A stretch of 64,000 nucleotides of DNA from Flavobacteriales bacterium (GCA_021739695.1 JAIPBM010000017.1:4354-68353), one strand, 5' to 3'. Positions 9,378-60,582 are shown, counted from the first letter of the stretch. Notes: generated by a model from the letters alone, not told the origin. Translations and numbers: made by a program.

Positions 9378-9400
9378 ATTTGCGGGCAAGGTTTTCGAAA

Positions 9401-9445
9401 TTAACCTAAGTTAATGCAGGTGCTGCGTGGTTCAGAATAGGTTTG
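9401..9445 (+). promoter_or_regulatory. Second copy of the TTAAC-N4-GTTAA box (9401-9414) followed by a -7 box TAGGTTTG (9438-9445)
   Basis: Exact repeat of the 15-mer at 5817-5831. The box centre lies about 31-38 nt upstream of a consensus TAnnTTTG -7 element, 22 nt before the start of the giant repeat-protein gene. Confidence 0.45.
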
Positions 9446-9466
9446 AAGAGATAAACTGAACCTATC

Positions 9467-12400
9467 ATGCAAACACCATCCAAGCTCCGATCTTCAGTGA
9501 TCATCCTCTTCTTTTTTACAGGCCTAAAGGCATTTTCGCAAAGTAATGGCGTAGGAATAGACATTCCCAATCCACAACAGAAACTCGATGTGGCCGGTGG
9601 AATCCGTATCGGGAACACTACCACAGGATTAGCTGGCTCCATCCGCTGGACAGGTGCCGCGTTTGAAGGTCATGATGGAACCAACTGGATTCCATTTGGA
9701 GGCTCCTTTATGGGGTATTGGTCTGCAAACGGACCCGACATATCCAACAGCAACACAGGCAATGTTGGAATTGGCAATTCCCTTCCTCAGGAAAAACTGC
9801 ACATAACGGGAAAGATCCGAGTGGTAGATGGTACGCAGGGAGCAGGAAAGGTGCTGATGAGCGATGCCAACGGTACTACATCATGGACCCATGCACCGAG
9901 CATCAATCTGCTTCGCGATGCCGACAACGACACCAAGATTCAGGTAGAGGAAAGTGCTGATGAGGACCTCATCCGATTTGACGCGGCCGGAAGTGAGATG
10001 TACACCATGCGCAAGTTGGCCGGAGGTTCACCTTGGCTGGAAGTAAACTCAACCAACACCCTTATTGGAAAAAGCATCAGCTCGGCCATCAATGGTTCAG
10101 GAAGGTGGAACACGGCCGTTGGTTTTCAATCAGCTCAAAACCTGACCACTGGGCAGAAGAACACGTATCTGGGAGACAACACAGGCGGATCCAATACAAC
10201 AGGCGATTGGAACACAATGCTCGGGACCGTGGCAGGCCAGTTCAATAACGGAGGCAGCATGAATACGATGGTGGGTGGAAATGCGGGCAGAAGCAATCTA
10301 ACAGGTTCAGGAAATGTGTTCATCGGATTCGCAGCCGGTGAGAATGAAACGGGCAGCAGCAAGCTTTACATCCACAATTCATCTACCGCAAACCCACTCA
10401 TTTATGGCGACTTCTCCAGCGGTCTGCTCCGTATCAACGGCACACTCAACGTCAATAATTCCTACAACCTGCCAACTGGAGCCGGTACCAATGGGTTTGT
10501 GCTGCAGACCAATGGATCAGGAACAGCATCGTGGGTAAATCCGAATACCTTGGCAATTACCGAGACCGACCCACAGGTAAGCGCTTCCACAACCAACGTT
10601 ATTCCGAAATGGAATGGTACTGCTTTGGTGGATGGTGTGATCAGTGATATTGGCACCACTGTCAACATTGCTTCCCGCATTGTCAACGTTGGCGATAACA
10701 CGTCCACGGCTGCCACATTCTTGAATCTGGTCAGGTCCGGATCATCAGGTCGGATATATCTGGGTAGTGGGGCCACCTCTCCCAATATGGTCATTCAGGC
10801 TCAAACCGCCAGTGGCGATATTGTGCTTGAAACGGTTTCAGGCGAATCTATGCGTGTTGCGGATGGTGGCAATGTGGGCATCGGGAATGCACTGCCGCAG
10901 GAAAAACTACATATTACCGGAAAGATCAGAATGGCAGACGGAACGCAGGGAACGGGAAAAGTGTTGGTGAGCGATGCCAATGGTTCGGCCTCGTGGACAG
11001 ATGCCGCCTCGCTTACCATTACCGAGACCGACCCACAGGTGAGTTCTTCCACAATCAACATCATTCCGAAATGGAACGGCACCACGCTGCAAGATGGCGC
11101 ACTTTATGACAACGGTAACATCGGCATCGGAAATGCGCTGCCGCAAGAAAAACTACATGTTACAGGAAAGATCAGAATGGTTGATGGAACACAAGGAACG
11201 GGAAAAGTGCTGGTGAGCGATGCCAACGGTTCGGCAGCTTGGGCCGATGCCACCACACTTACCATTGCCGAGACCGACCCACAGGTGAGTTCTTCCACAA
11301 TCAACATCATTCCGAAATGGAACGGCACTACGCTGGAAGATGGCGCACTTTACGACAATGGCAACATCGGCATCGGAAATGCGCTGCCGCAGGAAAAACT
11401 ACATGTTACCGGAAAGATCAGAATCGTTGATGGAACACAGGGAATGGGAAAAGTGCTGGTGAGCGATGCCAACGGTTCGGCAGCTTGGTCCAACGCACCA
11501 AGTGTCAATCTGATCCAAGATGCAGATGAAGACACCAAGGTTCAGCTGGAAGAAAGTGCCGATGAGGACATCATCCGTTTTGACCTTGCCGGAACAGAGT
11601 ATCTTGTGCTTGACAATGGCAGAATGAATATAAAAAACACCGGTGGTGGCACTTTTTTGGGCAATGAAGCAGGCCAAAATGATGACCTGAACGGAAGGTT
11701 CAATTCGTTTGTCGGTTATTTTTCAGGCAGAGCAACAACTTCTGGTGGTGACAATGCTGCTTTTGGGGCTGGTTCTATGGAAACAAACACAACCGGCAAC
11801 GGTAATACAGCCCTCGGTCGCTCTACCCTTTTTAGAAACGTTACAGGATCAGACAACGTGGCAATTGGTACATATGCCTTATATCAAAACCTTAATGGAT
11901 CCCGAAATGTGGCGATAGGCAGTGGAGCGGGAGCAAATGCCACAGGAATTGCCAACGTCTTCATAGGTAACGATGCGGGAGCCAACGAAACTGCCAATGA
12001 CCGTCTTTACATCGATAATTCGAATACAATGAATCCGCTTATCTACGGTAACTTCCTAAGTCGCGAAGCAGCTATCAATGGCAATCTGGGCATTGGAACA
12101 CAAAGCCCCACACAGAAACTGGATGTGTTAGGCAATGTTCATGTCAACTCAAACATCCTCATGTTCACAGATCCTCAGAATAGCAACAGCACCATTTACC
12201 TAACGGCCAACGATGCTGCTTACCCGAATGAAGGTCTCAGTGTGCGCACACTCAGCAGTCCTGCCAATGGCAAGCCGCTGTTCCGTGTGCTTTCTTCTGG
12301 TGGGGCAGAAAGATTGCGGGTGGAGCACAACGGAAGGGTTTACATGGATAACAAGCTTGATGTGGTCGGGCAACTTACTTTCCGCAATGGATCACCCGCT

Positions 12401-12853
12401 GCCGGAAAAACACTTGTTTCCACTGATGCGACCGGTAACGCCACATGGAGTCAGGGCACAGAGAATGTTGCCTACACGAAGAGCACAGGGGTTTATTCGC
12501 ACGACAATACAAACGGTTACGCTGCAATCACCGGAACGGCCTCACTCAGCGTTTTTTCGGGAGATGTCATTACCATCATGGCCAATGGTTCATTCCGTTT
12601 GGATGGTGGTTCGGGGGTAGATGACTTTTTCTTTCGCGTCAGCTATACTGGCTGCGCAACGGGCAATGCCAACGAGACGAACTATTTTCCAAGCGAAGAC
12701 GCTAATGACCACGACAATTATGTGCCGGTCTCCTATATAGACGTAATGGTGGCGCCTTGCACAGGTACGCTAGATTTCGAATTCAACGCCCGAAACGTGG
12801 GAGATGACCCTTGGACTGCGGAGGACAGGGTGCTAGTGGTGCGTAGGAATTGA
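9467..12853 (+). CDS. Large secreted repeat protein, adhesin-like or fibre-like
   Basis: 1128 aa with a signal peptide (VIILFFFTGLKAFSQ). It has 82-aa tandem repeats (GN.GIGNALPQEKLH.TGKIR..DGTQG.GKVL.SDANGSA.W...TETDPQVSS..INIIPKWNG). Two blocks of short NT/GxN repeats resemble trimeric-autotransporter head motifs. No T9SS C-terminal domain was recognised. Confidence 0.7.
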   Translation: MQTPSKLRSSVIILFFFTGLKAFSQSNGVGIDIPNPQQKLDVAGGIRIGNTTTGLAGSIRWTGAAFEGHDGTNWIPFGGSFMGYWSANGPDISNSNTGNVGIGNSLPQEKLHITGKIRVVDGTQGAGKVLMSDANGTTSWTHAPSINLLRDADNDTKIQVEESADEDLIRFDAAGSEMYTMRKLAGGSPWLEVNSTNTLIGKSISSAINGSGRWNTAVGFQSAQNLTTGQKNTYLGDNTGGSNTTGDWNTMLGTVAGQFNNGGSMNTMVGGNAGRSNLTGSGNVFIGFAAGENETGSSKLYIHNSSTANPLIYGDFSSGLLRINGTLNVNNSYNLPTGAGTNGFVLQTNGSGTASWVNPNTLAITETDPQVSASTTNVIPKWNGTALVDGVISDIGTTVNIASRIVNVGDNTSTAATFLNLVRSGSSGRIYLGSGATSPNMVIQAQTASGDIVLETVSGESMRVADGGNVGIGNALPQEKLHITGKIRMADGTQGTGKVLVSDANGSASWTDAASLTITETDPQVSSSTINIIPKWNGTTLQDGALYDNGNIGIGNALPQEKLHVTGKIRMVDGTQGTGKVLVSDANGSAAWADATTLTIAETDPQVSSSTINIIPKWNGTTLEDGALYDNGNIGIGNALPQEKLHVTGKIRIVDGTQGMGKVLVSDANGSAAWSNAPSVNLIQDADEDTKVQLEESADEDIIRFDLAGTEYLVLDNGRMNIKNTGGGTFLGNEAGQNDDLNGRFNSFVGYFSGRATTSGGDNAAFGAGSMETNTTGNGNTALGRSTLFRNVTGSDNVAIGTYALYQNLNGSRNVAIGSGAGANATGIANVFIGNDAGANETANDRLYIDNSNTMNPLIYGNFLSREAAINGNLGIGTQSPTQKLDVLGNVHVNSNILMFTDPQNSNSTIYLTANDAAYPNEGLSVRTLSSPANGKPLFRVLSSGGAERLRVEHNGRVYMDNKLDVVGQLTFRNGSPAAGKTLVSTDATGNATWSQGTENVAYTKSTGVYSHDNTNGYAAITGTASLSVFSGDVITIMANGSFRLDGGSGVDDFFFRVSYTGCATGNANETNYFPSEDANDHDNYVPVSYIDVMVAPCTGTLDFEFNARNVGDDPWTAEDRVLVVRRN
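10868..11490 (+). repeat. Tandem 246-bp intragenic repeats (2 full copies plus about half a copy)
   Basis: Repeat units start at 10868, 11114 and 11360, an exact 246-nt period. A more diverged unit starts at 9758. The copies are highly similar at the DNA level by eye. Confidence 0.85.
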
Positions 12854-12955: not shown

Positions 12956-13927
12956 TCAGGCCGCCAATATCTCGGCCAATTTCAGGTAGTCAGGATTCAC
13001 CTTATCGTGATGTTTGATCGCCTTATCGAATGATGTGTAGCACACTTTCTTGTCTACAATACCCACCATGACAGAATGTTTCCCTGCAAGCAGTGCATTC
13101 ACCGCTTCGTAGCCTAGTTGCGAAGCCAGCATGCGGTCCAATGCCGAAGGACTTCCACCCCGTTGCTGATGGCCCAGAATGGTAACACGCGTATCGTATT
13201 GCGGAAGCTGCTTCACTACCTGTTCGGCAATATTGTAGGCACCACCTGCATCATCTCCCTCGGCCACAATAATAATGCTGCTCGATTTCTTGCGGATATA
13301 AGCAGCCCGCAAGTTTGCCACCAGTTCTTCAAGGTCGGTATGAACCTCAGGAATGAGAATGGCGGTCGCTCCTACTCCAATGCCCGAACGGAGCGCAATG
13401 AAACCTGCATCCTTGCCCATCACTTCTACAAAGAACAATCGGTCGTGCGATGCGGCCGTGTCCTTGATTTTATCCACCGCATCCAGTACGTTATTTAGCG
13501 CTGTATCATAACCAATGGTATAATCGGTGCCAATAAGGTCGTTGTCGATGGTGCCAGGCAAGCCAATGAACGGAATATTGTGCTCCTCCGTAAAGACCTT
13601 GGCGCCTGCAAACGTGCCATCGCCACCAATGGCCACAATGCCTTCTATGCCATATTTCTGAAGATTATCGAAAGCCTGCTGGCGTCCTTCCTTGGTCAAA
13701 AAGGCCTTGCAGCGCGAAGATTTGAGGATGGTTCCGCCACGCTGAAGGATGTTTCCCACATCATCGCTGTCCAGCAATTTGAATTGGTCGTCTATCATGC
13801 CTTGGTATCCGTGCATGATGCCATAGATGGTCATTCCGTGATGTAATCCTGTTCTGACCACCGCGCGGATGCACGCGTTCATTCCCGGAGAATCTCCTCC
13901 GCTGGTAAATACTGCAATCGTCTTCAT
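12956..13927 (-). CDS. pfkA: ATP-dependent 6-phosphofructokinase
   Basis: 323 aa with IAVFTSGGDSPGMNA, GGDGT, PGTIDND and GHQQRGG motifs. Confidence 0.95.
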   Translation of the reverse strand: MKTIAVFTSGGDSPGMNACIRAVVRTGLHHGMTIYGIMHGYQGMIDDQFKLLDSDDVGNILQRGGTILKSSRCKAFLTKEGRQQAFDNLQKYGIEGIVAIGGDGTFAGAKVFTEEHNIPFIGLPGTIDNDLIGTDYTIGYDTALNNVLDAVDKIKDTAASHDRLFFVEVMGKDAGFIALRSGIGVGATAILIPEVHTDLEELVANLRAAYIRKKSSSIIIVAEGDDAGGAYNIAEQVVKQLPQYDTRVTILGHQQRGGSPSALDRMLASQLGYEAVNALLAGKHSVMVGIVDKKVCYTSFDKAIKHHDKVNPDYLKLAEILAA

Positions 13928-17216: not shown

Positions 17217-19115
17217 TTAATTTGCTGCTGCAGTTGGAGTTGAAGCTCCACCTCCATTCAACAATTTAAAATTACTGATGATTACACCTGGACGCTCGAA
17301 ATACATATCAGCATTTCCGAAACGTTTGTGAATGGCAACCCTGTTGGTAGACGAAAAGAAGAACACATAAGGTTGTTCCTCGTAGATCATTGCTTGCAGT
17401 TGCTTAACCATTGGAATACGAACGTCCATATCAAGCACGTGCTTCACAGAATCAATCAAGGCATCGCTTTCTGCATTACCGAAACCAGTAAAGTTTGAAC
17501 CTTTAGAAGCCCAAGATTCTGTGTGCCAGATCTGTGTGAAATCTTCTGGTACAGACGAACCTGCCCAAGCTGCAAGCATTGCATCGAATTTGTGATTTCT
17601 AGCATTGTCATAAAGAATTGCGAAATCCAACGGAGTGATGTTGCATTTCAAACCTGCCTCATACAACGCTTCTGAAATCATTTGTGCCTGATCTCTCCAT
17701 GTCACCTGAGTGGTCATGTAAGCAAGGTCAAAATCAAAATTCACCTTTTGTCCGTCAATCATTTTATCGCGGACATTGTCTCCATCTGAATCTACCCAAC
17801 CTGCTTCTTCCAACAATTTCTTGGCGCCTTCCAAGTCTCTTTCAATCAAAGGAAGGTCGCTGTTGTACTCCTTTTTAAGTGGAGATACTGGGCCTACCAT
17901 TCGCTTGTTCTTACCATTGTTCAGTACAATATTCATCTCATCAACCGATATCAGCATGGCAACAGCTCTACGAACACGTTTGTCATCGAAGAACTTTTTG
18001 TGCTCCACACCATCTGGGCGGCAATTAAATGCCATGTAAGAATAGTTGTAGGTATTGGTAAATCGAGAATGATAGTTCTCATTAAATATTGGATCTTCCT
18101 GAAGCTCCAACATTTTTTTGGTAGACAAGAATGTGGATGCATCCAATGCTTGTGTTTTGAACTCCAATGCCTGCGAGTTAGGATCAGTGTTGTTCTTGAA
18201 AATGATCTTCGCTGGATACGCAGTTTCATAGGCCGTTGGATCGGTCAATTTCTGAGTCCAATGATTTTCTTTTCTCACCAATGTATAAGATTGTCCTGGC
18301 TTCCACTCTGCCCATCTGTACGGCCCCATTCCAACCAAGAATTCTGGTTTTCGGCTGTACTTAGCATCGTTGAATTCTGTCGCCCACTCATTCAGATCAC
18401 CTTTAGAATCAGAATTGAAATTTGGCTCATCGAACTGCGCAAACGTGTACTTGCGCATCGTTTTATTTGGATCCCAATAGGTTTCTTGTAGCAATGGGTA
18501 ATCGGTAAGAAACACGATGTTCTGAATGTATTTCTTCTTCATCTTCAAGGTAAACTTTCGCGGATTGCTTGGATCCTTGATGATGTCCTCCAAATTCTCT
18601 ACGTATGGTTTTGAATGTGGATTATTTGTGAGCGGGCACTTGTTGGCCTTGAATGTGAAGATCACATCCTCAACAGTCAATTGAGTTCCATCATCCCAAG
18701 TTGGTTCGTCTCTCAATTCATAAGTGAACGAAAGTTCATCTTCCGATACTTCAGGCATGGCTTTGATTACATCTGGTCTCCCGCCTTTCAATTCAATAAG
18801 GTCGCTTCCAACCACAAAATGCTGCGTGTAGCTATTTAAGAATGACCTCGTGGCTGAGTTACCATTGGTCGGATGCATATCATCCGGCTCCCCTATCACG
18901 TGAAACACGACCGTATTTTCAGTAGACCAATCTGGTTTGAACTCCGTAGCATCAGGAACTTCAACGTAAGTAAGTTCACCAACTTCTGCGATTTTGTTGT
19001 CAGCGTTGGAAGCTGAATCATTTTCCGAACCGCCTCCGCATGAGGTGAGGCCAAGAATTGAACCGCCTATAATGGCTAGTCCTACAAATGCATTTCCGTT
19101 GTGTTTCAAGTTCAT
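17217..19115 (-). CDS. ABC transporter substrate-binding lipoprotein, family 5 (peptide/nickel type)
   Basis: 632 aa with a lipobox (LGLTSCGG). It has family-5 SBP-like sequence throughout and is the first gene of the SBP-permease-permease operon. Confidence 0.8.
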   Translation of the reverse strand: MNLKHNGNAFVGLAIIGGSILGLTSCGGGSENDSASNADNKIAEVGELTYVEVPDATEFKPDWSTENTVVFHVIGEPDDMHPTNGNSATRSFLNSYTQHFVVGSDLIELKGGRPDVIKAMPEVSEDELSFTYELRDEPTWDDGTQLTVEDVIFTFKANKCPLTNNPHSKPYVENLEDIIKDPSNPRKFTLKMKKKYIQNIVFLTDYPLLQETYWDPNKTMRKYTFAQFDEPNFNSDSKGDLNEWATEFNDAKYSRKPEFLVGMGPYRWAEWKPGQSYTLVRKENHWTQKLTDPTAYETAYPAKIIFKNNTDPNSQALEFKTQALDASTFLSTKKMLELQEDPIFNENYHSRFTNTYNYSYMAFNCRPDGVEHKKFFDDKRVRRAVAMLISVDEMNIVLNNGKNKRMVGPVSPLKKEYNSDLPLIERDLEGAKKLLEEAGWVDSDGDNVRDKMIDGQKVNFDFDLAYMTTQVTWRDQAQMISEALYEAGLKCNITPLDFAILYDNARNHKFDAMLAAWAGSSVPEDFTQIWHTESWASKGSNFTGFGNAESDALIDSVKHVLDMDVRIPMVKQLQAMIYEEQPYVFFFSSTNRVAIHKRFGNADMYFERPGVIISNFKLLNGGGASTPTAAAN

Positions 19116-19693: not shown

Positions 19694-19706
19694 ATTAGAC
19701 TTGGTC

Positions 19707-21566
19707 ATGAAAACACTTGCCAAGCTGTTTCCTTATGTTTCTGGTCTATCATTTCTGTGTTCATGCCAAGAACCAACTCTTCAGCATACGATATCAGCTA
19801 AGACGATTGAAGTTCTCAACAAAACCTATATTGGAAATTCCCGAGAATACGATTTCTTGGATGATTGGTCTACCGAAAACACCATCGTATATCATGTAAT
19901 TGGCGAACCAAATGATATGCACCCTACCAATGGGAATTCTGGAAATCGCTCGTTCGTAAATAACTACATTCATGGTTTTCTTCTAACAGCTGACCTTGTA
20001 AGTCTGAATGGCCTTCAACCCTCACTTGTAAAAAGGATGCCAACCATTTCGGAGAATCAACTGGATTTTACCTATGAATTGCGAGACGAACCAACTTGGG
20101 ATGACGGTTCTCAACTTTCTGTAGATGACGTGGTCTTTACCTTAAAGGCTAATAGGTGCCCTCTGACCAATAATCCGCACAGCAAACCATTCATCGAAAA
20201 CCTTCAGGAAATTGAATTAAACCCCGACAATCCCAGAGAGTTTACACTCAAGATGAAGAAGCATTATATGCACAATACCTCTATGCTGATGGAGTTTCCA
20301 ATGATGCAAGAATCTTTTTGGGATCCGAACCACATTTTGCGTAGCTATACTATTTCTGAATTTGACAACTCTGAACTGGATTTAGACAACCCAGCCTTAA
20401 ATAATTGGATCACAGAATTCAATGATTATAAGTACGGTACAAATCCGAATCTAATTGTAGGACTAGGCGCCTATCAGTTTTCGGAATGGAAAACGGGACA
20501 ATCATTTTCTCTTCTTCGGAAAACGAATCATTGGACCAGTACGTTGACGTCTCCATCAGTTTACGAAACCGCATATCCTGAAAGGATAATATTCAAGTTA
20601 AATACTGACGAGAACTCTCAAATTTTAGAGTTTAAAACTCAGGTCTTAGATGGCTCAAATGCACTAAGCAGTTCGGCATTTACAAAGCTGAAAGAATCTG
20701 AAGCATTTATCGAAAACTATCACGCTCAGGCAACACCAACATTTAACTACACACATCTACGTTTTAATCTTCGACCCGATGGGATAAAACATAAAAAGTT
20801 TTTTGAAGATGTAACGGTTAGAAGAGCCATAGCTCATTTAGTTAAGTATGATGAAATGAACCAAGTACTGTATCAGGGAATGCGAAGTAGAATTCCCGGC
20901 CCTGTTTCACCGTTAAAAACCTCGTTCAACAAAAGTCTTCGGCTCATTGATCACGACTTGGAGTTTGCGAGACAGCTATTAGCAGAAGCTGGTTGGATTG
21001 ATAGCGATAATGACAACATACGAGACAAACTTATTGATGGACAGAAAGTTGATTTTGAATTTGATCTACTTTATATGAGCAACAGTGATTCTTGGAAAGA
21101 TATGGCGTTGATGATCTCAGAATCACTTTATGAGGCTGGAATTAAATGCAATCCTGTTCAATTAGAGTTCACAGTGCTAAAAGATAAATCAAGAAATCAT
21201 GATTTTGACGCTGCACTTGCTGCTTGGGGAGGGTCATCTTTTGCTGAAGACTTTACACAGATATGGCATACTGAATCGTGGGCAAGCAAAGGTTTGAATT
21301 ACGGAGGGTTTGGAAATTCTGAAAGTGACGCCCTAATTGACTCCATAAAGTTTGCAATGACCGAAGACGAAAGATTTCCACTCGTACAGAAATTACAGAA
21401 GCTTATCTACGATAATCAGCCCTACGTTTTTCTATTCGCCTCTAACAGAACCAATGTGATGCACAAACGATTTGGAAATGCAGATATGTACTACGAAAAG
21501 CCTGGCATTGTGCTTAATAATCTTCAATTATTGGGTATTGGTGTTGTTCCAATGGCTGGAGATTAG
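19707..21566 (+). CDS. Orphan family-5 ABC substrate-binding protein, paralog of 17217-19115
   Basis: Long collinear similarity to the other SBP (for example NTIVYHVIGEPNDMHPTNGNSGNRSF versus NTVVFHVIGEPDDMHPTNGNSATRSF). Lipobox-like LSFLCSC. No permease genes follow. ATG at 19707 is preferred over TTG at 19701. Confidence 0.8.
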   Translation: MKTLAKLFPYVSGLSFLCSCQEPTLQHTISAKTIEVLNKTYIGNSREYDFLDDWSTENTIVYHVIGEPNDMHPTNGNSGNRSFVNNYIHGFLLTADLVSLNGLQPSLVKRMPTISENQLDFTYELRDEPTWDDGSQLSVDDVVFTLKANRCPLTNNPHSKPFIENLQEIELNPDNPREFTLKMKKHYMHNTSMLMEFPMMQESFWDPNHILRSYTISEFDNSELDLDNPALNNWITEFNDYKYGTNPNLIVGLGAYQFSEWKTGQSFSLLRKTNHWTSTLTSPSVYETAYPERIIFKLNTDENSQILEFKTQVLDGSNALSSSAFTKLKESEAFIENYHAQATPTFNYTHLRFNLRPDGIKHKKFFEDVTVRRAIAHLVKYDEMNQVLYQGMRSRIPGPVSPLKTSFNKSLRLIDHDLEFARQLLAEAGWIDSDNDNIRDKLIDGQKVDFEFDLLYMSNSDSWKDMALMISESLYEAGIKCNPVQLEFTVLKDKSRNHDFDAALAAWGGSSFAEDFTQIWHTESWASKGLNYGGFGNSESDALIDSIKFAMTEDERFPLVQKLQKLIYDNQPYVFLFASNRTNVMHKRFGNADMYYEKPGIVLNNLQLLGIGVVPMAGD

Positions 21567-53178: not shown

Positions 53179-54428
53179 ACTATCCAAGCCTTTCCGGTTC
53201 CGATTACTTCCACCTCCTTGTGGACCGAAAAATGCTGCGGAATGGTCTGGTTGGGAATATCTCGCGGATTCATTTGGAACTGGATTCGGATGCAAACCTC
53301 CTTTTAATTGCTGAACGCTTGGACCAAAATCAGGTACTCAACACGGTTGGGCAACTGAAAGTGGTTCATCGGTGGCCATTGCTGCCCAAGTGGGATGAGG
53401 AAAAAGGAAAAAGGAAAAGTGTCCTCGTTCAGTTTAACATGTCAAATTCGGAATTCAACGCTACCGTTCTCAATAGAAAAGTTGACAACGATAACGGCTT
53501 AGTGTTTATCGACCTATGTGAATTGGAAGACGGTACAAAACACATGGTCATTTCCATGCATCACGTGCTTTTCGACCATCAAGGCATGATGAATTTTCTG
53601 CATTCGCTGGCAGAGCCTCATGCTGAGTTTCCGTTGTTTCCGGCAAAAGAACCCTCCTCTTTTTGGAGAAAGTTAAGTAGTGGGCATTACATGACCGTCT
53701 ATATGCTTTGCAGAAGCAGCGGCCAACTTGGCACCTTGATCGGTAAACATGTAAAACCGAAAGAAAGACCTAAATTCAAGTTAATCCACTTCAATAAAGA
53801 AGAAACAGCAAGCATAGAAGCGAATGCTTGGAAAGCAGGTTCACGCATCGGACAGAGCGCGTTCTACTTATCGGCCACTGCGAAAGTCGTAAACGAAACC
53901 CTCTGCAAGCGAGGCGATGAACCACCGTATCTCTGGTTCTCGGTACCGCACAACAACAGACGAAAAGGAACGCTTGGACACTTGGTTTCCAATCAACTTA
54001 GCTTCCTGTTTTTCCGCCTACATAAGGAGGATCTGACTGAAATCACCAGCTCTGTTTCATCCATCAACTACCAACTGAAACAACAGCTCAAAGCACGAAT
54101 CATCGAGCGCTATTCCGAGCTTCAGGATGCCTTGCGCAGGATGCCGCTCTTCATTTACGAGGGCATGGTTGATCTTGCTTCCAAAGGTAAAATGTCCAGT
54201 TTCGGCTACTCAGATCTTGGTGAGCAGAAAACAATTGTGAAGGATTTCCTCGGAGCAAAAGTGCTGCGGATGCATCACTATCCGCCTGTTCCATCACCTC
54301 CCGGATTCAATGTGATCGCTAGTAAGAACAATGGTGAACTAGCGTTCGTATGGGCTTATTTTGATGAAGCCTTGAACCAAAAGGAGATTGAAGAAATGGA
54401 GATTTCGTTCCGAAAAACCCTTCTGTAG
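53175..54428 (+). CDS. Condensation/PapA/WS-DGAT-like acyltransferase (HHxxxD motif)
   Basis: 417 aa with ISMHHVLFDHQG near residue 130, the position and form of the catalytic HHxxxDG motif. Its start overlaps the ACP stop (ATGA). Confidence 0.5.
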   Translation: MNYPSLSGSDYFHLLVDRKMLRNGLVGNISRIHLELDSDANLLLIAERLDQNQVLNTVGQLKVVHRWPLLPKWDEEKGKRKSVLVQFNMSNSEFNATVLNRKVDNDNGLVFIDLCELEDGTKHMVISMHHVLFDHQGMMNFLHSLAEPHAEFPLFPAKEPSSFWRKLSSGHYMTVYMLCRSSGQLGTLIGKHVKPKERPKFKLIHFNKEETASIEANAWKAGSRIGQSAFYLSATAKVVNETLCKRGDEPPYLWFSVPHNNRRKGTLGHLVSNQLSFLFFRLHKEDLTEITSSVSSINYQLKQQLKARIIERYSELQDALRRMPLFIYEGMVDLASKGKMSSFGYSDLGEQKTIVKDFLGAKVLRMHHYPPVPSPPGFNVIASKNNGELAFVWAYFDEALNQKEIEEMEISFRKTLL

Positions 54429-54448
54429 CGGTTTGCCGTGACAAACCA

Positions 54449-55558
54449 TTACAAGTAACCTAACTCATTGAATACAAGACCCCAAGCGATACGCACCTCT
54501 TCCATTTGTTTGGGGTCGTAATCATACTTATTGGTCTTGTAGCCCTCATAGCTTTTCACTTCGGCTTTGATGAATGGCGCAGCTGCTTCAAAATCGAATC
54601 CGAGCGTTTGGTAAGCTCCTTTAAGCGTTTCCATTTCATTACCAATAAGCTCTTCGTATTTGATCTCTACTAGATTTCCTTCAGGAATCAACTTTCTCGT
54701 TTCAAAGTACCTTAAGAACGTTTCTCGGTATGACTTTATGATGAAATCGTTCACCACCTCTTGCGGCCAATGCTGCAAAGCCACCAAAGGGAGCGTAATC
54801 GCATAAAGCCGTTCAGTGGAGAAATAGACTCGGTACGGATCTCTGTAGATGTGAATGAACTTGGCATCGGGAAAAACCTCCAGAATGGCTTCAATTCTCG
54901 AGAGATTCTCTGGCGCCTTGATGATCAGTTGCTTGCCACCGTGTTTTAACGTCAGCTTTTGCATGAAGTACTTGAATGCTGATTGCCACTCCTTTTTCGC
55001 TTCAGCATCATCAAACATTACAAATTGTCTGAATGACCAGTACATGATCTTTGGAAACATGTAGCCTGGTAGCATGCTTGCCCAACTCATATTTCCGATG
55101 GAATACTCTGGTTCTGTGGGCATATCTACGCTTAGGCGAAGATTGTCCATTGGACGTTTTTCCGGCACGCGGTTTCCGAGCATGCGCTGCAGCATCTTCT
55201 CAAATGAGAGGTATAACCAAGGCATGAAACTTTCCTTTACGGACAGGAAGGCAAACTGCGGATCGCGGCCAAGCAGGTAGTGCAGATACGTGGTTCCGCT
55301 ACGCTGATGACCAAGTATAAACACAGGTGCTTTCACTTCCGTTTCGCGGATTTGCTTATCCCATCTCAACCGCTCCCACCAAATGAGCGGGGTAAAAAGC
55401 ACGATCAAGAGTGTGATGACGATACATTTAGGAATGAAACGCCATTCAATTTGAGCACGATAACGCCAAACCATTCCCAGCCAAGTGCTCAGGTTCGCTC
55501 CCATCACCGTAGGTGCAGAGAAATCGAAATGACTTTTAGGTCCGATGATCTTGTTCAA
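54449..55558 (-). CDS. Membrane-anchored PAPS-dependent sulfotransferase family protein
   Basis: One TM (IVITLLIVLFTPLIWW), a 5'-PSB loop (LGHQRSGTTYLH) and a 3'-PB-like IYRDPYRVYFS. Confidence 0.7.
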   Translation of the reverse strand: MNKIIGPKSHFDFSAPTVMGANLSTWLGMVWRYRAQIEWRFIPKCIVITLLIVLFTPLIWWERLRWDKQIRETEVKAPVFILGHQRSGTTYLHYLLGRDPQFAFLSVKESFMPWLYLSFEKMLQRMLGNRVPEKRPMDNLRLSVDMPTEPEYSIGNMSWASMLPGYMFPKIMYWSFRQFVMFDDAEAKKEWQSAFKYFMQKLTLKHGGKQLIIKAPENLSRIEAILEVFPDAKFIHIYRDPYRVYFSTERLYAITLPLVALQHWPQEVVNDFIIKSYRETFLRYFETRKLIPEGNLVEIKYEELIGNEMETLKGAYQTLGFDFEAAAPFIKAEVKSYEGYKTNKYDYDPKQMEEVRIAWGLVFNELGYL

Positions 55559-55608
55559 ATGAAAGGGCTCTCGTGCTCGTTTTCTAACTTGGCGGCAAAT
55601 ATGCGGAA

Positions 55609-58125
55609 TTGACCTCTAAGACCTCCATAAAGACTACTCCGCATGTGCTAAGATTCGCGTTTTTCATTTTCTCATTTTTCCTTTTCTCGCTCCAAGCATC
55701 AGCTCAGCGAACCCGCATTTTCGGTTCGGTGACTGATGCCAAGACAGAACTTCCACTCCCTTTTGTGAACGTTTTCTTTCAGAAAAGTACGATTGGAACG
55801 GTCAGTGATTCGCTTGGGAATTTTGTGCTTGAAACCAATCGGAATTTCGATTCTCTGACCGTTTCATTGATCGGCTATCGAAGCCAAACCTTGGCCGTCA
55901 ATCGAGGTGTGACGGAGGAAATTGAAGTTCAACTTTCACCATCTTCCTTCGAACTCGGAATGGTTGACGTGCGACCAGGCGAAAATCCTGCATTCAAAAT
56001 CCTTCGGAAGGTGATTGCCAATAAACCGATCAACACGCCTGAACGATTGGAATCCTACGAATATGAGGTTTATCACCGTGTGCAGTTCGACTTGAACAAC
56101 TTCACAGAGAAGATCAAGAAAAACCTCTTCTTGCGTCCGTTCGATTACATGTGGGAGAACACGGATACCACCGAAGATGGTGTGAATTACCTACCGATGC
56201 TTCTTACCGAAAGCAGCGAAGAGCATTTCTATCGCAAGAAACCTTATTCCAAAAAGAAGGTCATCAATGGACAGCGCACCTTCAAATTCTTTCAGGCACC
56301 AAAGATCATGGAGTTTGTGCAGGATATGTACATCGACCCGAACATCTACGACAATTACGTGATCATCCTCGACCGTAGTTTCCCGAGTCCGATCAACGAT
56401 TTCTACAAGCGGAATTACAATTTCGTGTTGGATTCGGGCATTCACAACATCAACGGGTTTCCGAGCCACCACATCTTTTTCAAACCAAAAGGCAAAAGCG
56501 ATGTGGCCTTTACGGGCGATATGTACATCGATACTGTGAGCTATGCCGTGGTGCAGGTTGACCTGGAATTCAGTGTAGAGGCTAACATCAATTTTGTGCG
56601 GAACTATTGGATTCAGCAGAACTATTCGTTCGTAGATGACAAGCAATGGTTCCTTACCAAAAGCCGCGTGATCGGTGATTTCACGGTGATTGAGAACGAC
56701 AAGGATATGACCGGTTTTTTCGGAAAGAAGACAACCGAATTGCGCAACATCAAGATCAACGAGCCTCGAAATGCAGGCTTCTACTCTACCATCGACCCAG
56801 TAATTGTGGCCGACAGTGCCAATATCCGCGATGAAGCTTTTTGGAACGAGGTCAGACGAGACACTTTTAGCACAGAGCAGCAGAATCTGGTCTCGATGAT
56901 CGATCGTATGAACCACGACAAGAAGTGGAAATTGCTTATTGGCGGACTGAAACTCTTGGCCGAAGGTTGGATTCCGTTCAGACAGATCGATATTGGAAAC
57001 GTATTCACTTTCTACAGTTGGAATCAATACGAACAGTCGCGCGTGAAACTTGGTTTTAGAACCAACGACTTTTTCAGTGATCAGGTGAAACTGAGTGGCT
57101 ACCTCGCTTACGGCATTGGCGACCAACGTTTCAAAGGTGGTGGCGAAGCGGCTTTCATCTTTCCCGGAAAGCTAAGTAAGCGTTGGATTTTCGGTGGCAA
57201 ATACCGCAACGATCTTTTCCAGCAAGGGCGAAGTCAGAACATGCTGCCCTTGGATCAAGTGTTGACCTCTTTCGTACGCATCAGCGGATCCGAAAAACGA
57301 AGTATGCTAGAGAGTTACAGCGTCTATCTTGAACGCCAATGGTTCACTGGTCTTTCTTCACGCTTGTCAGTTTTCAGAGACAATTACAGTCCATTGGGCA
57401 ATCCATTCCGAATGAGATCTGCAGGCGACACGCTGAACTTGGAAGGATATTCAACAGCTGGATTCAAGTTCAATCTTCGCTTTGCTTGGGGCGAGGATAA
57501 GCTGCCTGCAACTTTCGATCAAGTTGATGGGCCATTCTTCTTCCGCAAGTACCCGATGGTTTCGTTGGAAGCGGCTGTTGGCATCAAGGATTTTCTCGGT
57601 TCGCAGTTCAATTATCAGCAATACAAACTAAAACTAGAATACCAACTGCGCGCCAACAAGGCCGGTTACCTCAATATTTTGGCCGAAGGTGGTCTCATCA
57701 ACGGTTATCTTCCATATCAACTCCTGCACGTTCCCGATGGCAATCCGTTGGTGTTCAACGATGATCACGGTTTTAACCTGATGAACTACATGGAATTCGT
57801 TAGCGACAAGTATGTTTCATTACAGTTGGAACATCATTTCAACGGCTTGCTGTTCAACCTTATTCCCGGTGTTCGAAAACTCAAACTGCGGTCCTTACTG
57901 ATCGGAAAACTCTACTACGGAGGACTCACAACTGACAATCTGAACGGCAAATACATTTTGGCCGATGGAATGACCAACACACGGATTCCTTATGTAGAAG
58001 TTGGTTTCGGTATTGAGAACATCCTCAAAATATCGCGTATTGATTTCACTTGGCGGGTTACGCAACTTGGCAATTCAAATACCCTGGGTTTTATCGTAAA
58101 GCCGAGTTTTTACTTTCGCTTCTGA
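55609..58125 (+). CDS. CarboxypepD_reg-like plus DUF5686 outer-membrane protein
   Basis: Signal peptide, an N-terminal carboxypeptidase-regulatory-like domain (RIFGSVTDAKTELPLPFVNVFF...SDSLGNF), a long beta-rich C-terminal region, and a terminal aromatic residue (FYFRF). The start could be TTG 55609 or GTG 55645. Confidence 0.7.
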   Translation: MTSKTSIKTTPHVLRFAFFIFSFFLFSLQASAQRTRIFGSVTDAKTELPLPFVNVFFQKSTIGTVSDSLGNFVLETNRNFDSLTVSLIGYRSQTLAVNRGVTEEIEVQLSPSSFELGMVDVRPGENPAFKILRKVIANKPINTPERLESYEYEVYHRVQFDLNNFTEKIKKNLFLRPFDYMWENTDTTEDGVNYLPMLLTESSEEHFYRKKPYSKKKVINGQRTFKFFQAPKIMEFVQDMYIDPNIYDNYVIILDRSFPSPINDFYKRNYNFVLDSGIHNINGFPSHHIFFKPKGKSDVAFTGDMYIDTVSYAVVQVDLEFSVEANINFVRNYWIQQNYSFVDDKQWFLTKSRVIGDFTVIENDKDMTGFFGKKTTELRNIKINEPRNAGFYSTIDPVIVADSANIRDEAFWNEVRRDTFSTEQQNLVSMIDRMNHDKKWKLLIGGLKLLAEGWIPFRQIDIGNVFTFYSWNQYEQSRVKLGFRTNDFFSDQVKLSGYLAYGIGDQRFKGGGEAAFIFPGKLSKRWIFGGKYRNDLFQQGRSQNMLPLDQVLTSFVRISGSEKRSMLESYSVYLERQWFTGLSSRLSVFRDNYSPLGNPFRMRSAGDTLNLEGYSTAGFKFNLRFAWGEDKLPATFDQVDGPFFFRKYPMVSLEAAVGIKDFLGSQFNYQQYKLKLEYQLRANKAGYLNILAEGGLINGYLPYQLLHVPDGNPLVFNDDHGFNLMNYMEFVSDKYVSLQLEHHFNGLLFNLIPGVRKLKLRSLLIGKLYYGGLTTDNLNGKYILADGMTNTRIPYVEVGFGIENILKISRIDFTWRVTQLGNSNTLGFIVKPSFYFRF

Positions 58126-58520
58126 TGATTGGATTATTTAAACCTGTAGTCTACTATATTCAATTTCGTTTCAATGAAATTGAAATCAAAAATCTGGAAA
58201 GTGGTAGAAGTCTTAAACGAACCGCCTCTGTGCCATTCTCAAATCAACGGATGATTCTTGCAGAATTTGAAATCGCTCGTGAATTATTAAACTCAATGAT
58301 TGTAGAAGTTAAGAGCCATTTGAACCCATTGAGAGAAGTGACAATGGTTATGCATGTGGTTGATGAAATTCCTGATGGTTGGGCTGATGTTGAAAAGCGT
58401 GCGTATCGAGATCTTGCTGAACAAACAGGAGCAAGAACAGTGCTGTTGTCCGAGTACAAAGGATCTTTGAGTGATAGCATCATTATGGAAGGAATCAAGA
58501 AATCCAATTGGAAGTTTTAG
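58125..58520 (+). CDS. Hypothetical 131-aa protein resembling the N-terminal half of MreB/actin-like proteins, without the phosphate-binding motif
   Basis: ATG overlaps the DUF5686 stop (TGATG). By-eye alignment to MreB: MIGLF versus MFGLF; ILAEFEIARELLNSMIVEV versus VIADFFVTEKMLQHFIKQV; VEKRAYRDLAEQTGARTVLLSE versus [23 protein letters not shown]. There is no DLGTANT-like motif. Confidence 0.45.
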   Translation: MIGLFKPVVYYIQFRFNEIEIKNLESGRSLKRTASVPFSNQRMILAEFEIARELLNSMIVEVKSHLNPLREVTMVMHVVDEIPDGWADVEKRAYRDLAEQTGARTVLLSEYKGSLSDSIIMEGIKKSNWKF

Positions 58521-58632
58521 AATTAGCAATGGAGCTTCTACCCATCCAACGTCAAAGCAAACAAAGCCTTTTTCGGCAATCCGAATGTGAAAGAAAATCA
58601 ACAGCTTTCGGTCGGGTATTCTCAGGTCATAA

Positions 58633-58686
58633 GATTCAAACATCCTTGGCTTTATCGTGAAGCCGAGTTTTTATTTCAGGTTTTAG
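58633..58686 (+). pseudogene. Orphan duplicate of the last 17 codons of the DUF5686 gene
   Basis: Reads DSNILGFIVKPSFYFRF-stop, preceded by an in-frame TAA. The intact gene ends NSNTLGFIVKPSFYFRF-stop at 58073-58125. The last 13 aa are identical, with several synonymous nucleotide differences. Confidence 0.8.
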
Positions 58687-58758
58687 ATGTGAGTGTCGCT
58701 TGGCCAACACCACCGTAGATTGAGTCACAATTAGCTTTGGAGTTCAGAACCAAACGAC

Positions 58759-59145
58759 ATGATCAAATACTTCTTACTGGCCTTACGCATTGCGGTCGCA
58801 GTCATTCTCGTACAGACTCTTCGTTTCAAATTCACCGCACATCCTGATAGTGTCTACATATTCACGCAGGTCGGTCTTGAGCCTTACGGCAGAGTTGGCA
58901 TTGGCGTGCTGGAACTCATTTCAGCCATTCTCATCTTGATTCCAAAAACGGTTTGGGCTGGCGCTGGACTCACAGTTGGCATCATTGGTGGAGCCATCAT
59001 GATGCATCTCACCCAATTGGGAATCGACATCAATGGAGATGGTGGCTCGCTTTTCTATTTGGCACTTATTACCGAAATCCTTTCGATTACCGTTTTGTTC
59101 TTTTATCGAAAGGACATTCCGAACATTGGCAGCAAACTCCCATGA
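58759..59145 (+). CDS. DoxX-family membrane protein
   Basis: 128 aa with 4 TM helices and typical DoxX-like composition. Confidence 0.65.
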   Translation: MIKYFLLALRIAVAVILVQTLRFKFTAHPDSVYIFTQVGLEPYGRVGIGVLELISAILILIPKTVWAGAGLTVGIIGGAIMMHLTQLGIDINGDGGSLFYLALITEILSITVLFFYRKDIPNIGSKLP

Positions 59146-59594
59146 GACCAATCCTGTTCATCCTCGCATTCATCTCGCTCGGTATGCTCGAAACCTATGC
59201 GCAGAAACCGTTTTACAATACCGAAGATGGCTTGATAGCCCAAGGCTATGATGTGGTGGAATACTTCAAGGGAAAAGCCATGGAAGGTTCCAATAAGTTC
59301 AGTGTAAAACATGATGGCGTGACATTTCAATTCTCCTCTGATGAAAACACGAAGAAGTTCGTTTCGTCACCCGAAAAGTACATTCCACAATATGGTGGCT
59401 GGTGTGCTTACGCGATGGGCGCCAAGGGCGAAAAAGTGACCATCAACCCTAAAACCTTTGAGATTCGCGATGGGAAGTTGTACCTGTTTTACAATGCTTT
59501 TTTCAACAATACCTTCGAGAGTTGGAAGAAAGAAGGCCCAGATAAGCTTCGAAAGCAGGCTGATGAGAATTGGAAAGCAACCAAACACCAATAG
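59142..59594 (+). CDS. YHS-domain secreted protein
   Basis: Signal peptide (MRPILFILAFISLGMLETYAQ); GYDVVEYF, then FQFSSDENTKKFVSSPEKYIPQYGGWCAYAMG. Its ATG overlaps the DoxX stop (ATGA). Confidence 0.7.
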   Translation: MRPILFILAFISLGMLETYAQKPFYNTEDGLIAQGYDVVEYFKGKAMEGSNKFSVKHDGVTFQFSSDENTKKFVSSPEKYIPQYGGWCAYAMGAKGEKVTINPKTFEIRDGKLYLFYNAFFNNTFESWKKEGPDKLRKQADENWKATKHQ

Positions 59595-59679
59595 CGCTTT
59601 TCTGGACAGTTATACATTCAACTGAGTTGAGTGTAACATTTTCCTAAGCAGATTTAATGGAGTGCTTAATTTTAATGGC

Positions 59680-60558
59680 ATGAAAAAACTCCTAATCCTT
59701 TCCGTATCTGTCTTGTTATTCGTAAGTCTTCATGCTCAGGTTCCTTTCCCAACGGATGGCGCCATTTGGGTGAACACGGAATACACTTATTCGTTCAATC
59801 CACCCAATCCTATTCCAGATTCGTACTTGAATGATGTGGACAATTACTGTGTGAACGGTCAGGACACGACCATTCAAGGTAATGATTACACACAGGTTTT
59901 CTTCTGTGATGATGCATATAAAGGCGCGCTACGCGAGGTGAACAGCGCTGTTTATTTCGTTCCTGCTGATTCAACTGATGAATACTTACTGTATGATTTT
60001 GCCGCACAAGTGTCGCAAGTGCTGGAGAACGTATACGTAGGAAACCATAATGATGAATCCTTTATGCTTCAGGATTTCACTGTGCAGCAAATAGGCACGG
60101 AAATCATTGGTGGAGTGACCAGACGCGTGGTTTGGGCCGATAACTTTCGCTGGATTGAAGGAATCGGATGCGAAACAGGTCTTTTCATGGAACCATGGAC
60201 CAACGTATCGATGTATGCAAATTTCCTTGAATGCATGAGCGTGAATGGAACAACACTGTTTCCAGTTGAAGGAAATGGAGCCTGTCCGTTGACGGTTAGC
60301 GTAAAGGAAACTGCCAACTCTGAAATCTCGCTTCGTGTTTATCCAAATCCAACTGCTCAATCGGTGATGGTGGAATTCGGAGAAGCTCAGAATGATGCTA
60401 GCATTACCGTTTACAACGTGGCAGGACAGCAATTACAGGCAATTGATGTGGAAAATGTGGATAGGGCAACTATCAATTTGAAAGATCATGGAATGTACTT
60501 CCTCACCGTAAGCACATCCAACGGGTTACGAAAAACCTATCGTGTCGTCCGGAACTAG
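59680..60558 (+). CDS. Hypothetical secreted protein with a T9SS C-terminal domain
   Basis: Signal peptide and a CTD-like tail (LRVYPNPTAQSVMVEF...GMYFLTVSTSNGLRKTYRVVRN). Confidence 0.6.
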   Translation: MKKLLILSVSVLLFVSLHAQVPFPTDGAIWVNTEYTYSFNPPNPIPDSYLNDVDNYCVNGQDTTIQGNDYTQVFFCDDAYKGALREVNSAVYFVPADSTDEYLLYDFAAQVSQVLENVYVGNHNDESFMLQDFTVQQIGTEIIGGVTRRVVWADNFRWIEGIGCETGLFMEPWTNVSMYANFLECMSVNGTTLFPVEGNGACPLTVSVKETANSEISLRVYPNPTAQSVMVEFGEAQNDASITVYNVAGQQLQAIDVENVDRATINLKDHGMYFLTVSTSNGLRKTYRVVRN

Positions 60559-60582
60559 AATTCAGCGTGCGATTTCTTTATA

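Follow-up and report, generated by a model that had tools for sequence, protein, structure and literature searches.

The 3' end of a conserved DUF5686 gene in a Flavobacteriales bacterium is present twice, and the downstream duplicate is best understood as the scar of a horizontal gene import in which one side was guided by homology and the other was closed by an illegitimate joint (HFIR type). This reading is given a probability of roughly 0.58. A dedicated recombinase is not needed for an import of this type. All positions refer to the window, which is the whole 64,000-nt stretch of DNA that was analysed.

The DUF5686 gene is located on the plus strand at 55609–58125 and encodes a CarboxypepD_reg-like domain and a DUF5686 barrel (Pfam CarbopepD_reg_2 and DUF5686). 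Its intact end reads ...NSNTLGFIVKPSFYFRF-TGA. The orphan copy, which consists of 17 codons and a TAG at 58633–58686 on the same strand, reads DSNILGFIVKPSFYFRF-TAG and is directly preceded by an in-frame TAA (58630–58632). The copies are spaced by 561 nt (58073–58125 versus 58634–58686), and the pair was the top direct repeat in a repeat search (43 nt, 86%, spacing 561). An earlier note on this DNA had described the duplication with these coordinates, this spacing, and the in-frame TAA, and all of them hold. The copies are identical at 41 of the last 54 nt. Eleven of the 51 coding nucleotides differ, yet this affects only 2 of the 17 residues. The 13 C-terminal residues are the same in both copies and, as had been observed earlier, the differences over them are synonymous (eight nucleotides, with two further changes in the stop codon). 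When 11 substitutions were placed at random on 51 coding nucleotides 200,000 times, two or fewer amino acid changes occurred with P ~ 3e-5. The pattern is not a product of chance, and the divergence took place under purifying selection. The left boundary of the orphan copy is sharp, with similarity absent upstream of 58633, and the residues before the duplicated end (GFGIENILKISRIDFTWR) are nearly invariant among relatives. A second assembly (Logan SRR12088350, contig L029) shows the same arrangement at 100% identity.

Within the native tail, and so within the remnant, a terminator-like hairpin with a T-run is predicted from folding energy at 58645–58677 on the plus strand (−11.9 kcal/mol, z = −3.2 versus shuffles, stem of 8–10 bp). 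It recurs in the intact DUF5686 tails of several relatives. This predicted hairpin is the sole feature that emerged from the Rfam and promoter scans of 57.5–59.5 kb, a region in which no Rfam family matched. Orthologues of the gene with 78–93% amino acid identity are found in L001–L007, L030–L034, and L059, and a sulfotransferase gene adjoins. DUF5686 is a conserved gene bordering a variable hot spot.

The two ends differ in their relation to the sister genome L059, whose baseline identity to the window is ~93%. The orphan tail matches the intact end of L059 at 51 of 54 positions versus 41 of 54 for the window's own end. It runs without a break into the native flank that L059 and L070 share on its downstream side, and it retains the native 72-nt spacer and the DoxX-YHS neighbours. 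The intact window tail matches L059 at 42 of 54 positions. Its 12 mismatches compare with 8 in the preceding 61 nt and 13 in the 185 nt further upstream (~7%). The mismatch excess over the L059 baseline has a binomial P of ~0.005, a modest support that covers the last 54 nt; the donor tract retained upstream is short and amounts to at most 115 nt. On these comparisons, the orphan is most likely the native DUF5686 end, i.e., the original last 17 codons displaced downstream. The intact window tail is the outlier and looks like an imported donor allele, with certainty for the last 54 nt (58072–58125) and possibly from about 58011, to judge from the L059 mismatches and the GC content. The tract at 58011–58125 on the plus strand has 40% GC versus 45.6% across the entire gene. 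With respect to its origin, all of the available loci are 40–46/54 identical to the window tail and none is prominent. The end that the earlier note regarded as regenerated is the donor's own copy of a conserved gene, brought in with its neighbour. The proposal in the same note that two alleles are present, each of which evolved as a functional gene end, agrees with the synonymous-only divergence and with the 94% identity of the remnant to the intact L059 end.

The 561-nt unit is composed of the foreign-allele DUF5686 tail, a YjaA-like gene, and a frameshifted 5' fragment of a GNAT gene. Its single ORF, ORF131 (58125–58520, plus strand), starts with an ATG that overlaps the DUF5686 stop (TGATG). 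Both this ORF and the reported lack of a recombinase were confirmed, the latter by finding no recombinase domains in the unit or within ~7 kb. ORF131 matches the NCBIfam model NF041448, a YjaA-family small protein (MreB-N-terminal-like), with E = 2.9e-17 and 62.9 bits (cutoff 125) over profile positions 4–118 of 125. By this profile match, it is a distant YjaA-family relative and not an equivalog. A word-indexed search returned the query alone, which gave ORF131 the appearance of an orphan; this was overturned by an exhaustive HMMER search, in which 265 family representatives (115–145 aa) align with it end to end. A more distant YjaA-like homologue, P0124, follows a histidine-kinase-like gene and has no link to DUF5686. 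The homologues P0122 and P0123 lie directly after DUF5686, with the same TGATG overlap, in L064–L066. There, the YjaA-like gene is the native DUF5686 neighbour and the duplication is absent; the earlier note had asked whether ORF131 homologues also sit after genes with duplicated 3' ends. Because DUF5686 with an overlapping YjaA-like gene is native in L064–L066, a suitable type of donor exists.

The right part of the unit is a pseudogene, the GNAT acetyltransferase 5' fragment at 58529–58633 on the plus strand. In tblastn, positions 58548–58652 match residues 14–48 of the L060 protein GNAT162 with 49% identity (E = 6e-7), and the N-terminus MELLPIQ matches MNLLPIH in another frame. The stub is frameshifted after MELLPIQ and is cut at about codon 40–48 by the junction. 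Judged from the sequence, this truncated and frameshifted gene marks the illegitimate joint at the right end of the unit. Positions 58626–58652 resemble both the native tail and the L060 GNAT gene (common ...CCTTGG...), the latter being a proxy and not the true donor sequence; such a double resemblance would suit a microhomology patch. The beta-strand-like reading AFFGNPNVKENQQLSVGYSQV upstream of the remnant was considered as part of a longer, decayed copy of DUF5686 and was rejected; it is the GNAT fragment. The GC content of the unit is 37–42% versus 45–46% in its neighbours, and that of ORF131 is 37.4% versus 44.9% for the window. No attC-like inverted repeats were found at the unit ends. 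The earlier comparison of the unit with a gene cassette is not sustained, as its right end is undefined and stops inside the GNAT gene, and conserved element ends are missing.

Downstream of the remnant, the native block at 58687–59594 (plus strand; Pfam) comprises the 72-nt spacer, a DoxX_2 gene (58759–59145), and a YHS-like gene (59142–59594). The gene for a Por_Secre_tail protein follows at 59662–60558 on the same strand (Pfam). The block is 91–99% identical in nucleotides to L059 and 93% identical to L070, and the match begins inside the remnant. The comparison with relatives that had been proposed in the earlier note revealed empty sites. The unoccupied DUF5686-72 nt-DoxX junction is seen in L070, and in L002, L003, and L006, DUF5686 is directly followed by the Por_Secre_tail gene, its usual neighbour in empty-site relatives. 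The 561-nt unit is absent from all of the ~35 related loci. L059 carries another insertion at −27 nt, namely a Por_Secre_tail gene accompanied by a DUF5686-Por spacer of donor type that resembles the one in L003, and has a perfect 24-nt direct repeat.

The following course of events can be proposed. The ancestor would have carried DUF5686 followed by the 72-nt spacer, DoxX, and YHS. The incoming DNA would have come from a diverged relative with DUF5686, a YjaA-like gene overlapping it at TGATG, and then GNAT. Pairing may have occurred ~100 nt upstream of the DUF5686 stop, where the sequence is highly conserved (codons FGIENILK...). The last ~17+ DUF5686 codons, the YjaA-like gene, and the first ~45 GNAT codons of the donor strand, too diverged or unrelated, would have remained unpaired, and the strand would have rejoined the recipient at a microhomology patch 54 nt before the recipient's stop. 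Because the donor strand joined at this patch, the gene would now end with the donor allele, the recipient's last 17 codons would be orphaned upstream of DoxX, and a GNAT stub would be left. A short duplication would have arisen because the "foreign" part starts with the donor's diverged version of this gene end. The anatomy, the allele assignment, the truncated GNAT gene, the lack of the unit in relatives, the unoccupied junction, and the recurrence are seen in the sequences, and we infer the order of these events and the route of DNA entry; the joint microhomology and the left crossover position come from proxies, since the donor was not found.

The recurring topology that had been pointed out for pfkA extends to three more insertions in the DUF5686 tail and to two events at a SET-domain gene. 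The pfkA gene (12956–13927, minus strand; Pfam PFK, E = 4e-109) has an orphan 3' end of 23 codons and a stop at 5089–5159 on the same strand, 7.8 kb downstream and with a sharp left boundary. The orphan is identical to the intact tail at 61 of 69 nt; over 63 nt, they differ by 5 nt and 1 aa (P = 0.0085). Together with ~16 nt of flank, it is 87.6% identical to the pfkA tail and flank of L067. The 7.6 kb in between (5241–12853, plus strand; Pfam) encode a cNMP-binding protein, a TPR-adenylate cyclase, an FAD monooxygenase, and a 1128-aa repeat protein, and no recombinase was found there with Pfam. This block is missing downstream of pfkA in L067–L069. A stop-anchored scan of the 58 window genes detected downstream orphan tails for two (DUF5686 and pfkA), and its upstream control detected none. 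A third scar considered at 2–178 and 1563–1925 was discarded, as these are two ArsR-family paralogues that flank an ars-like cluster and both look full-length.

The further DUF5686-tail insertions, in L059, L005/L031, and L060, are independent, as are the SET-domain-gene scars in L004/L032/L033 and in L007. The SET-gene remnants are ~80% identical to the resident type, and a closer allele was not found. Across events, the duplicated tails measure 27–198 bp and are often strongly diverged. In L059 and L060, both tail copies are nearly identical, so the donor-versus-recipient argument is not applicable to them. Compared with its homologues, the cargo gene of L005 lacks four codons, and the loss falls exactly at the joint. 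No integrase was found in or near any unit, and no sequence is common to the unit ends. The joints of the four DUF5686-tail insertions are at −54, ~−36, −36, and −27 nt, i.e., there is no fixed crossover core, which speaks against the earlier suggestion of a mechanism dedicated to targeting the 3' ends of genes and regenerating them. Four independent joints within ~30 nt, at the tail hairpin, are nevertheless tighter than in a naive random-joint model. This clustering may be explained by survivorship, with long direct repeats being quickly deleted, and by proximity to the anchor.

The event could also be read in mirror image. The original order would then be DUF5686-YjaA-like-GNAT, and the last 54 nt of DUF5686, the spacer, DoxX, and YHS would have been imported with homology on the right side (the Por_Secre_tail gene). 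The illegitimate joint on the left would have cut GNAT, and the orphan tail would be donor DNA. Topology alone gives no direction. Moreover, DoxX-YHS with the last ~36 nt of the tail is 93% identical to L070, whose DUF5686 differs (70% in nucleotides). Because the DoxX-YHS block is common to this very different DUF5686 allele, it moves between backgrounds with a crossover inside the tail. However, the mirror image predicts an intact tail that is ~93% identical to L059, and 78% was found, with 94% for the orphan. ORF131 and the tail are low in GC (37–40%), in contrast to DoxX-YHS, whose GC content is that of the genome. The mirror image also calls for an additional, earlier event that brought the YjaA-type segment into the species. 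This direction of transfer is considered unlikely.

A Campbell-type event, in which a donor fragment (the tail, the YjaA-like gene, and part of GNAT) recircularised illegitimately and entered by one homologous crossover in the DUF5686 tail, appears improbable for the window. Such an event accounts for repeats that end at the limit of homology, and it fits the near-identical repeats of L059 and L060. Experiments in E. coli have yielded partial duplications of a homologous gene end (Amarir-Bouhram et al. 2011, PMC3240628): plasmids that had suffered deletions and recircularised entered by single crossovers and likewise left a gene, an insert, and a partial gene-end copy with one illegitimate joint and no recombinase. 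The duplications in those experiments are 109–950 bp and identical, whereas those described here are 27–198 bp and often strongly diverged, so a RecA crossover inside the repeat is unlikely for the window event. The window segment has 54 nt at 76% with a longest identical run of 14 nt, which is far below the usual need of a RecA-dependent crossover. The intact copy is donor-like from end to end, and its left half too differs from the native type (5/27 mismatches); because of this, the crossover would be confined to the first ~8 nt.

It is very unlikely that the unit is a site-specific, non-autonomous cassette that carries a replacement gene end and owes its insertion at an att core of the DUF5686 tail to a trans-acting recombinase. 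Four independent insertions in the last 54 nt, at or in the conserved hairpin and T-run, would suit such a cassette, as would the perfect 24-nt direct repeat of L059. Synonymous replacement 3' ends are the classical signature of e14 and phage 21 in icd. In these elements and in CIME/ICESt1 in fda, insertion takes place at the 3' end of a protein gene, a synonymous replacement end is supplied, and the old end is orphaned; they have an integrase, a fixed core, and defined element ends. In the DUF5686 unit, the gene is likewise kept intact by a replacement end and an orphan remains, but the integrase, the fixed core, and the defined ends are lacking. The joints vary between insertions, the window crossover lies at or left of −54, and the L059 repeat comprises the last 27 nt only. 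The unit ends share no sequence, and the right one is a truncated gene. No integrase was found in or near the units, although a trans-acting enzyme may be encoded elsewhere in the genome, and the cargo is a native neighbour gene elsewhere. Unrelated genes with unrelated tails (pfkA and SET) bear the same scar. Integron cassettes are also small, single-ORF, promoterless-looking units that accumulate at one site, but here intI, attI/attC, and conserved boundaries are absent and the right end is a broken gene. An equally long shot is an undescribed system of uncultured Flavobacteriales, integrase-less or acting in trans, for which the DUF5686 tail (hairpin and T-run, last ~45 nt) and analogous tails would serve as loading sites. 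It would place gene-sized modules at the structured ends of genes, which would explain four joints within ~30 nt. An in-situ tandem duplication of DUF5686 with decay or an assembly chimera is practically negligible, as a direct repeat exists but nothing further speaks for either, other DUF5686 similarity between the copies is absent (the only tblastn match outside the gene is at 58633–58683, so the decayed duplicate named in the earlier note as a refuting outcome does not apply), the ORF between them belongs at full length to a different family, the differences are synonymous only, the copy matches the intact allele of another genome, and an independent assembly has the same structure.

The preferred one-sided-homology import has known counterparts. 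HFIR, as it is presented through PMC5361080 and PMC2884548, comes from laboratory transformation assays and usually involves a deletion in the recipient (de Vries & Wackernagel 2002; Prudhomme et al. 2002; Meier & Wackernagel 2003). In that description, as is proposed for DUF5686, one end is homologous, whereas the other was joined illegitimately, close to the anchor and at or near microhomology, and foreign genes are trapped beside a conserved gene, truncated at the joint, without the need for a recombinase. The DUF5686 case differs in being a natural footprint with a short duplication instead of a deletion. Touzain et al. (2010, PMC2884548) proposed HFIR as the origin of small variable segments, and Kirchberger et al. 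(2017, PMC5361080) proposed it for the 3' ends that are displaced in T6SS/Rhs arrays. In the C-terminal displacement of rhs, CDI, and T6SS genes (Jackson et al. 2009, PMC2935791; PMC5361080), a module anchored in the conserved part pushes the old 3' end downstream and leaves orphan 3' fragments behind. Those systems concern polymorphic toxins with variable C-termini and selected immunity genes, whereas the tail described here is conserved, the genes are ordinary (an outer-membrane barrel, pfkA, and a SET-domain gene), and the cargo is YjaA-like, so that the topology alone matches. A selected role for the DUF5686 orphan is not evident. Small variable segments (PMC2884548) likewise occupy one fixed site flanked by conserved genes, where presence or absence varies at the scale of genes and mobile-element signatures are lacking, but the papers give the polymorphism itself. 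At DUF5686, the event can be reconstructed because the joint and the displaced gene end are preserved. Gene-scale presence/absence variation between conserved flanking genes is likewise known from the minimal mobile elements (MMEs) of Neisseria.

The HFIR-type mechanism is already known, and on the preferred reading the DUF5686 scar is a clear and recurrent natural example of it. Natural footprints of gene acquisition by one-sided homology are seldom preserved well enough for reconstruction. For DUF5686, the donor-type arrangement and the unoccupied site can both be seen, as can the native end that was displaced and the donor gene that was truncated. Events of this kind have taken place independently at least seven times in a single group of uncultured Flavobacteriales. 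Annotators should be aware that short repeats of this kind are not necessarily att sites or cassette boundaries. The genomic signature, a stop-anchored orphan tail that follows the intact gene at a distance of a few hundred bp to a few kb, could serve to measure how much recombination hot spots gain in genes without mobile elements.

The DUF5686 gene (55609-58125, forward strand; Pfam CarbopepD_reg_2 and DUF5686) ends in NSNTLGFIVKPSFYFRF-TGA, and exactly 561 nt downstream an orphan 3' end (58633-58686, forward strand), with an in-frame TAA just before it, reads DSNILGFIVKPSFYFRF-TAG. The duplicated end is a real feature: the arrangement was also found in an independent assembly (Logan SRR12088350 contig L029, 100% identical to the window), and the spacing, the overlapping ORF and the coordinates described in the earlier note all hold. 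The two ends share 41 of their last 54 nt. The 51 coding nucleotides contain 11 differences and only 2 amino acid changes, and so few changes would rarely follow from 11 randomly placed substitutions (P~3e-5). The view that these are two alleles, each of which evolved as a functional gene end, is therefore correct. A longer decayed copy was excluded, since the similarity breaks off sharply at 58633 despite the preceding residues of the protein being nearly invariant among relatives.

The ORF of 131 codons between the ends (ORF131, 58125-58520, forward strand) starts within the TGATG of the DUF5686 stop. It appeared to be an orphan in a word-indexed search, where the query itself was the sole match. 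This was overturned by an exhaustive HMMER search, which recovered 265 cluster representatives of 115–145 aa that align end to end. ORF131 matches the YjaA family of stress proteins in NCBIfam below the curated cutoff (E=2.9e-17; profile positions 4-118 of 125) and weakly resembles the MreB N-terminus, so it is probably a distant YjaA-family member. Its closest two homologues (47% and 43% identity) lie directly 3' of DUF5686 in the related loci L064 (318-722), L065 (5001-5405) and L066, with the same one-base stop/start overlap and without a duplicated tail. The idea that such homologues might also follow duplicated 3' ends was not borne out; DUF5686 and the YjaA-like gene instead form a native pair in part of the clade. 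This ~130-aa YjaA-like or MreB-N-terminal-like family is widespread and in the clade repeatedly TGATG-coupled to DUF5686, and the same overlap is used by the unrelated DUF6624 genes of loci L018 and L060. The 112 nt from ORF131 to the orphan tail are not a spacer but the 5' part of a GNAT acetyltransferase gene: it starts with MELLPIQ at 58529, is frameshifted, and continues as NVKANKAFFGNPNVKENQQLSVGYSQVI. This last part is 49% identical (E=6e-7) to residues 14–48 of the L060 GNAT gene and is truncated where the orphan tail begins.

Approximately 35 related loci were recovered for comparison. Their backbone consists of a sulfotransferase gene (reverse strand), DUF5686 (forward strand), a variable region, a Por_Secre_tail gene and a SET-domain gene (reverse strand); in three of them (L002, L003, L006), the Por gene directly follows DUF5686. 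In the presence/absence comparison proposed in the earlier note, none of the loci carries the 561-nt unit, and in L070 the junction is unoccupied, an intact DUF5686 end being followed by a 72-nt spacer and then DoxX; from 58651 on, this sequence is 93% identical to that of the window. In the sister genome L059 (baseline identity ~93%, in a mosaic pattern), DUF5686 is followed by a different Por_Secre_tail gene and an orphan tail of 27 nt; the same 72-nt spacer then leads on to DoxX (98% aa identical), YHS and Por.

The orphan tail matches the intact tail of L059 at 51 of 54 positions, but that of its own window at only 41. The intact tail of the window matches L059 at 42 of 54, against ~93% for the gene body (P~0.005); mismatches number 0 over 57941-58010 and then 20 within the last 115 nt. 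ORF131 and the imported tail have a GC content of 37–40%, as opposed to 45–46% for DUF5686, DoxX and YHS. Together with the unoccupied junction of L070, the tail identities and the GC contrast favour the reading that the orphan is the native DUF5686 end and that the present end arrived with ORF131. The mirror scenario, in which the tail fragment and DoxX-YHS were imported from the right, is unlikely. The DoxX-YHS block does move between very different DUF5686 backgrounds (in the 959-nt L070, it is 93% identical to that of the window behind an allele only 70% identical), but the allele and GC evidence point in the opposite direction.

Other exchanges have affected the locus. In L070, similarity to L060 and the window switches ~36 nt before the DUF5686 stop, which suggests that divergent lineages also cross over by homology within the conserved tail block. 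At 54400-55900, the sulfotransferase gene and the DUF5686 5' end are 57–83% identical to L059, with both flanks at 91–99%; this indicates a probable replacement by a separate recombination import. The similarity to L059 is lost within the 3' region of the Por_Secre_tail gene (~60300-60560 and beyond), probably another breakpoint of the mosaic; farther downstream, the window encodes a 435-aa repeat protein and DciA, and L059 instead a thiolase and other genes.

Earlier work has proposed homology-facilitated illegitimate recombination (HFIR) to explain both small variable segments (PMC2884548) and the displacement of 3' ends in rhs and T6SS arrays (PMC5361080). In the window, a donor strand would have paired in the strongly conserved block ~100 nt before the DUF5686 stop, a left crossover with modest statistical support. 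The diverged tail, YjaA-like neighbour and GNAT start of the donor would have behaved as heterologous DNA, rejoined to the recipient ~50 nt downstream of the anchor, where the GNAT gene of L060 (a proxy, not the donor) resembles the native tail; both contain CCTTGG in the joint region. Surviving remnants are expected to be short or diverged, since long identical direct repeats would be deleted by recombination. In E. coli, most products of constructs designed to detect HFIR were partial duplications of the end of the homologous gene, which arose when recircularised molecules underwent a single crossover (PMC3240628). For L059 and L060, this Campbell-type variant is a live alternative; in the window, a repeat of just 54 nt at 76% identity makes it unlikely.

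The order of gene, insert and orphan tail recurs, as the resemblance to the pfkA case had suggested. Behind pfkA in the window, a 7.6-kb insert of four genes without a recombinase precedes an orphan of 23 codons (61/69 nt identical); the insert is missing downstream of pfkA in L067-L069, and the orphan with its native flank resembles L067. The block includes a 1128-aa ORF (9467-12853) with internal repeats (self-hits of 50–87% identity) and no Pfam domain. At DUF5686, the insert is a Por_Secre_tail gene in L059 (joint 27 nt before the stop), a DUF6624 gene in L060 (orphan tail 29/36 nt identical), and in L005/L031 a DUF6624 gene that is 4 codons shorter at the joint than its homologues; there, the last 27 nt of the orphan match the L034 allele at 24 positions and their own gene at 17. 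Orphan ends of the convergent SET-domain gene lie beyond the insert, in frame to the stop, as scars of the same kind that arose at the opposite border of the hot spot: 42–44 codons behind a Por gene in L004 (8740-8871), L032 (6483-6614) and L033 (7078-7203), and about 53–66 codons behind a 422-aa gene in L007 (8514-8711). A stop-anchored scan found downstream orphan tails for 2 of 58 window genes, with 0 in the upstream control. One candidate, 2-178 and 1563-1925, was rejected: these are two paralogues of the ArsR family, 44% identical over 59 aa, which flank a small cluster including a low-molecular-weight phosphatase/ArsC-like gene. Two divergently oriented SBP_bac_5-type solute-binding-protein paralogues (57% identity over 610 aa) occupy 17217-19115 (reverse) and 19701-21566 (forward).

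The four independent DUF5686 joints (-54, about -36, -36 and -27 nt before the stop) all lie at or in a terminator-like hairpin, CTTGGCTTTATCGTGAAGCCGAG then TTTTTATTT with a T-run, in the last ~45 nt of the coding sequence (58645-58677; a weaker form at 58084-58116), a hairpin that several relatives also have in their intact tails. Structured, conserved DNA beside the anchor may merely be preferred for illegitimate joining; given the clustering, a structure- or site-directed mechanism retains a slim chance. The earlier note likened the unit to a gene cassette. Several features speak against such a cassette with defined ends, and against the action of a site-specific recombinase: the broken GNAT gene at the right end, the lack of end sequences common to the units, the differing joints, a window crossover at or left of -54 (the whole intact tail being foreign), and the finding of no recombinase within several kb of the units.

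When e14 or phage 21 integrates in icd, the replacement end carries synonymous changes, and the scar looks similar; it fails the tests for an integrase, a fixed core and defined ends, as well as those for the attC and intI of integron cassettes. In its working it resembles HFIR and also the C-terminal displacement known from rhs/CDI/T6SS loci, except that the genes here are ordinary ones with conserved tails. The DUF5686 scar event is recurrent in this lineage, and its best explanation is a known, recombinase-free route of gene import that combines homology on one side with an illegitimate joint on the other, rather than a mobile cassette of a new kind.
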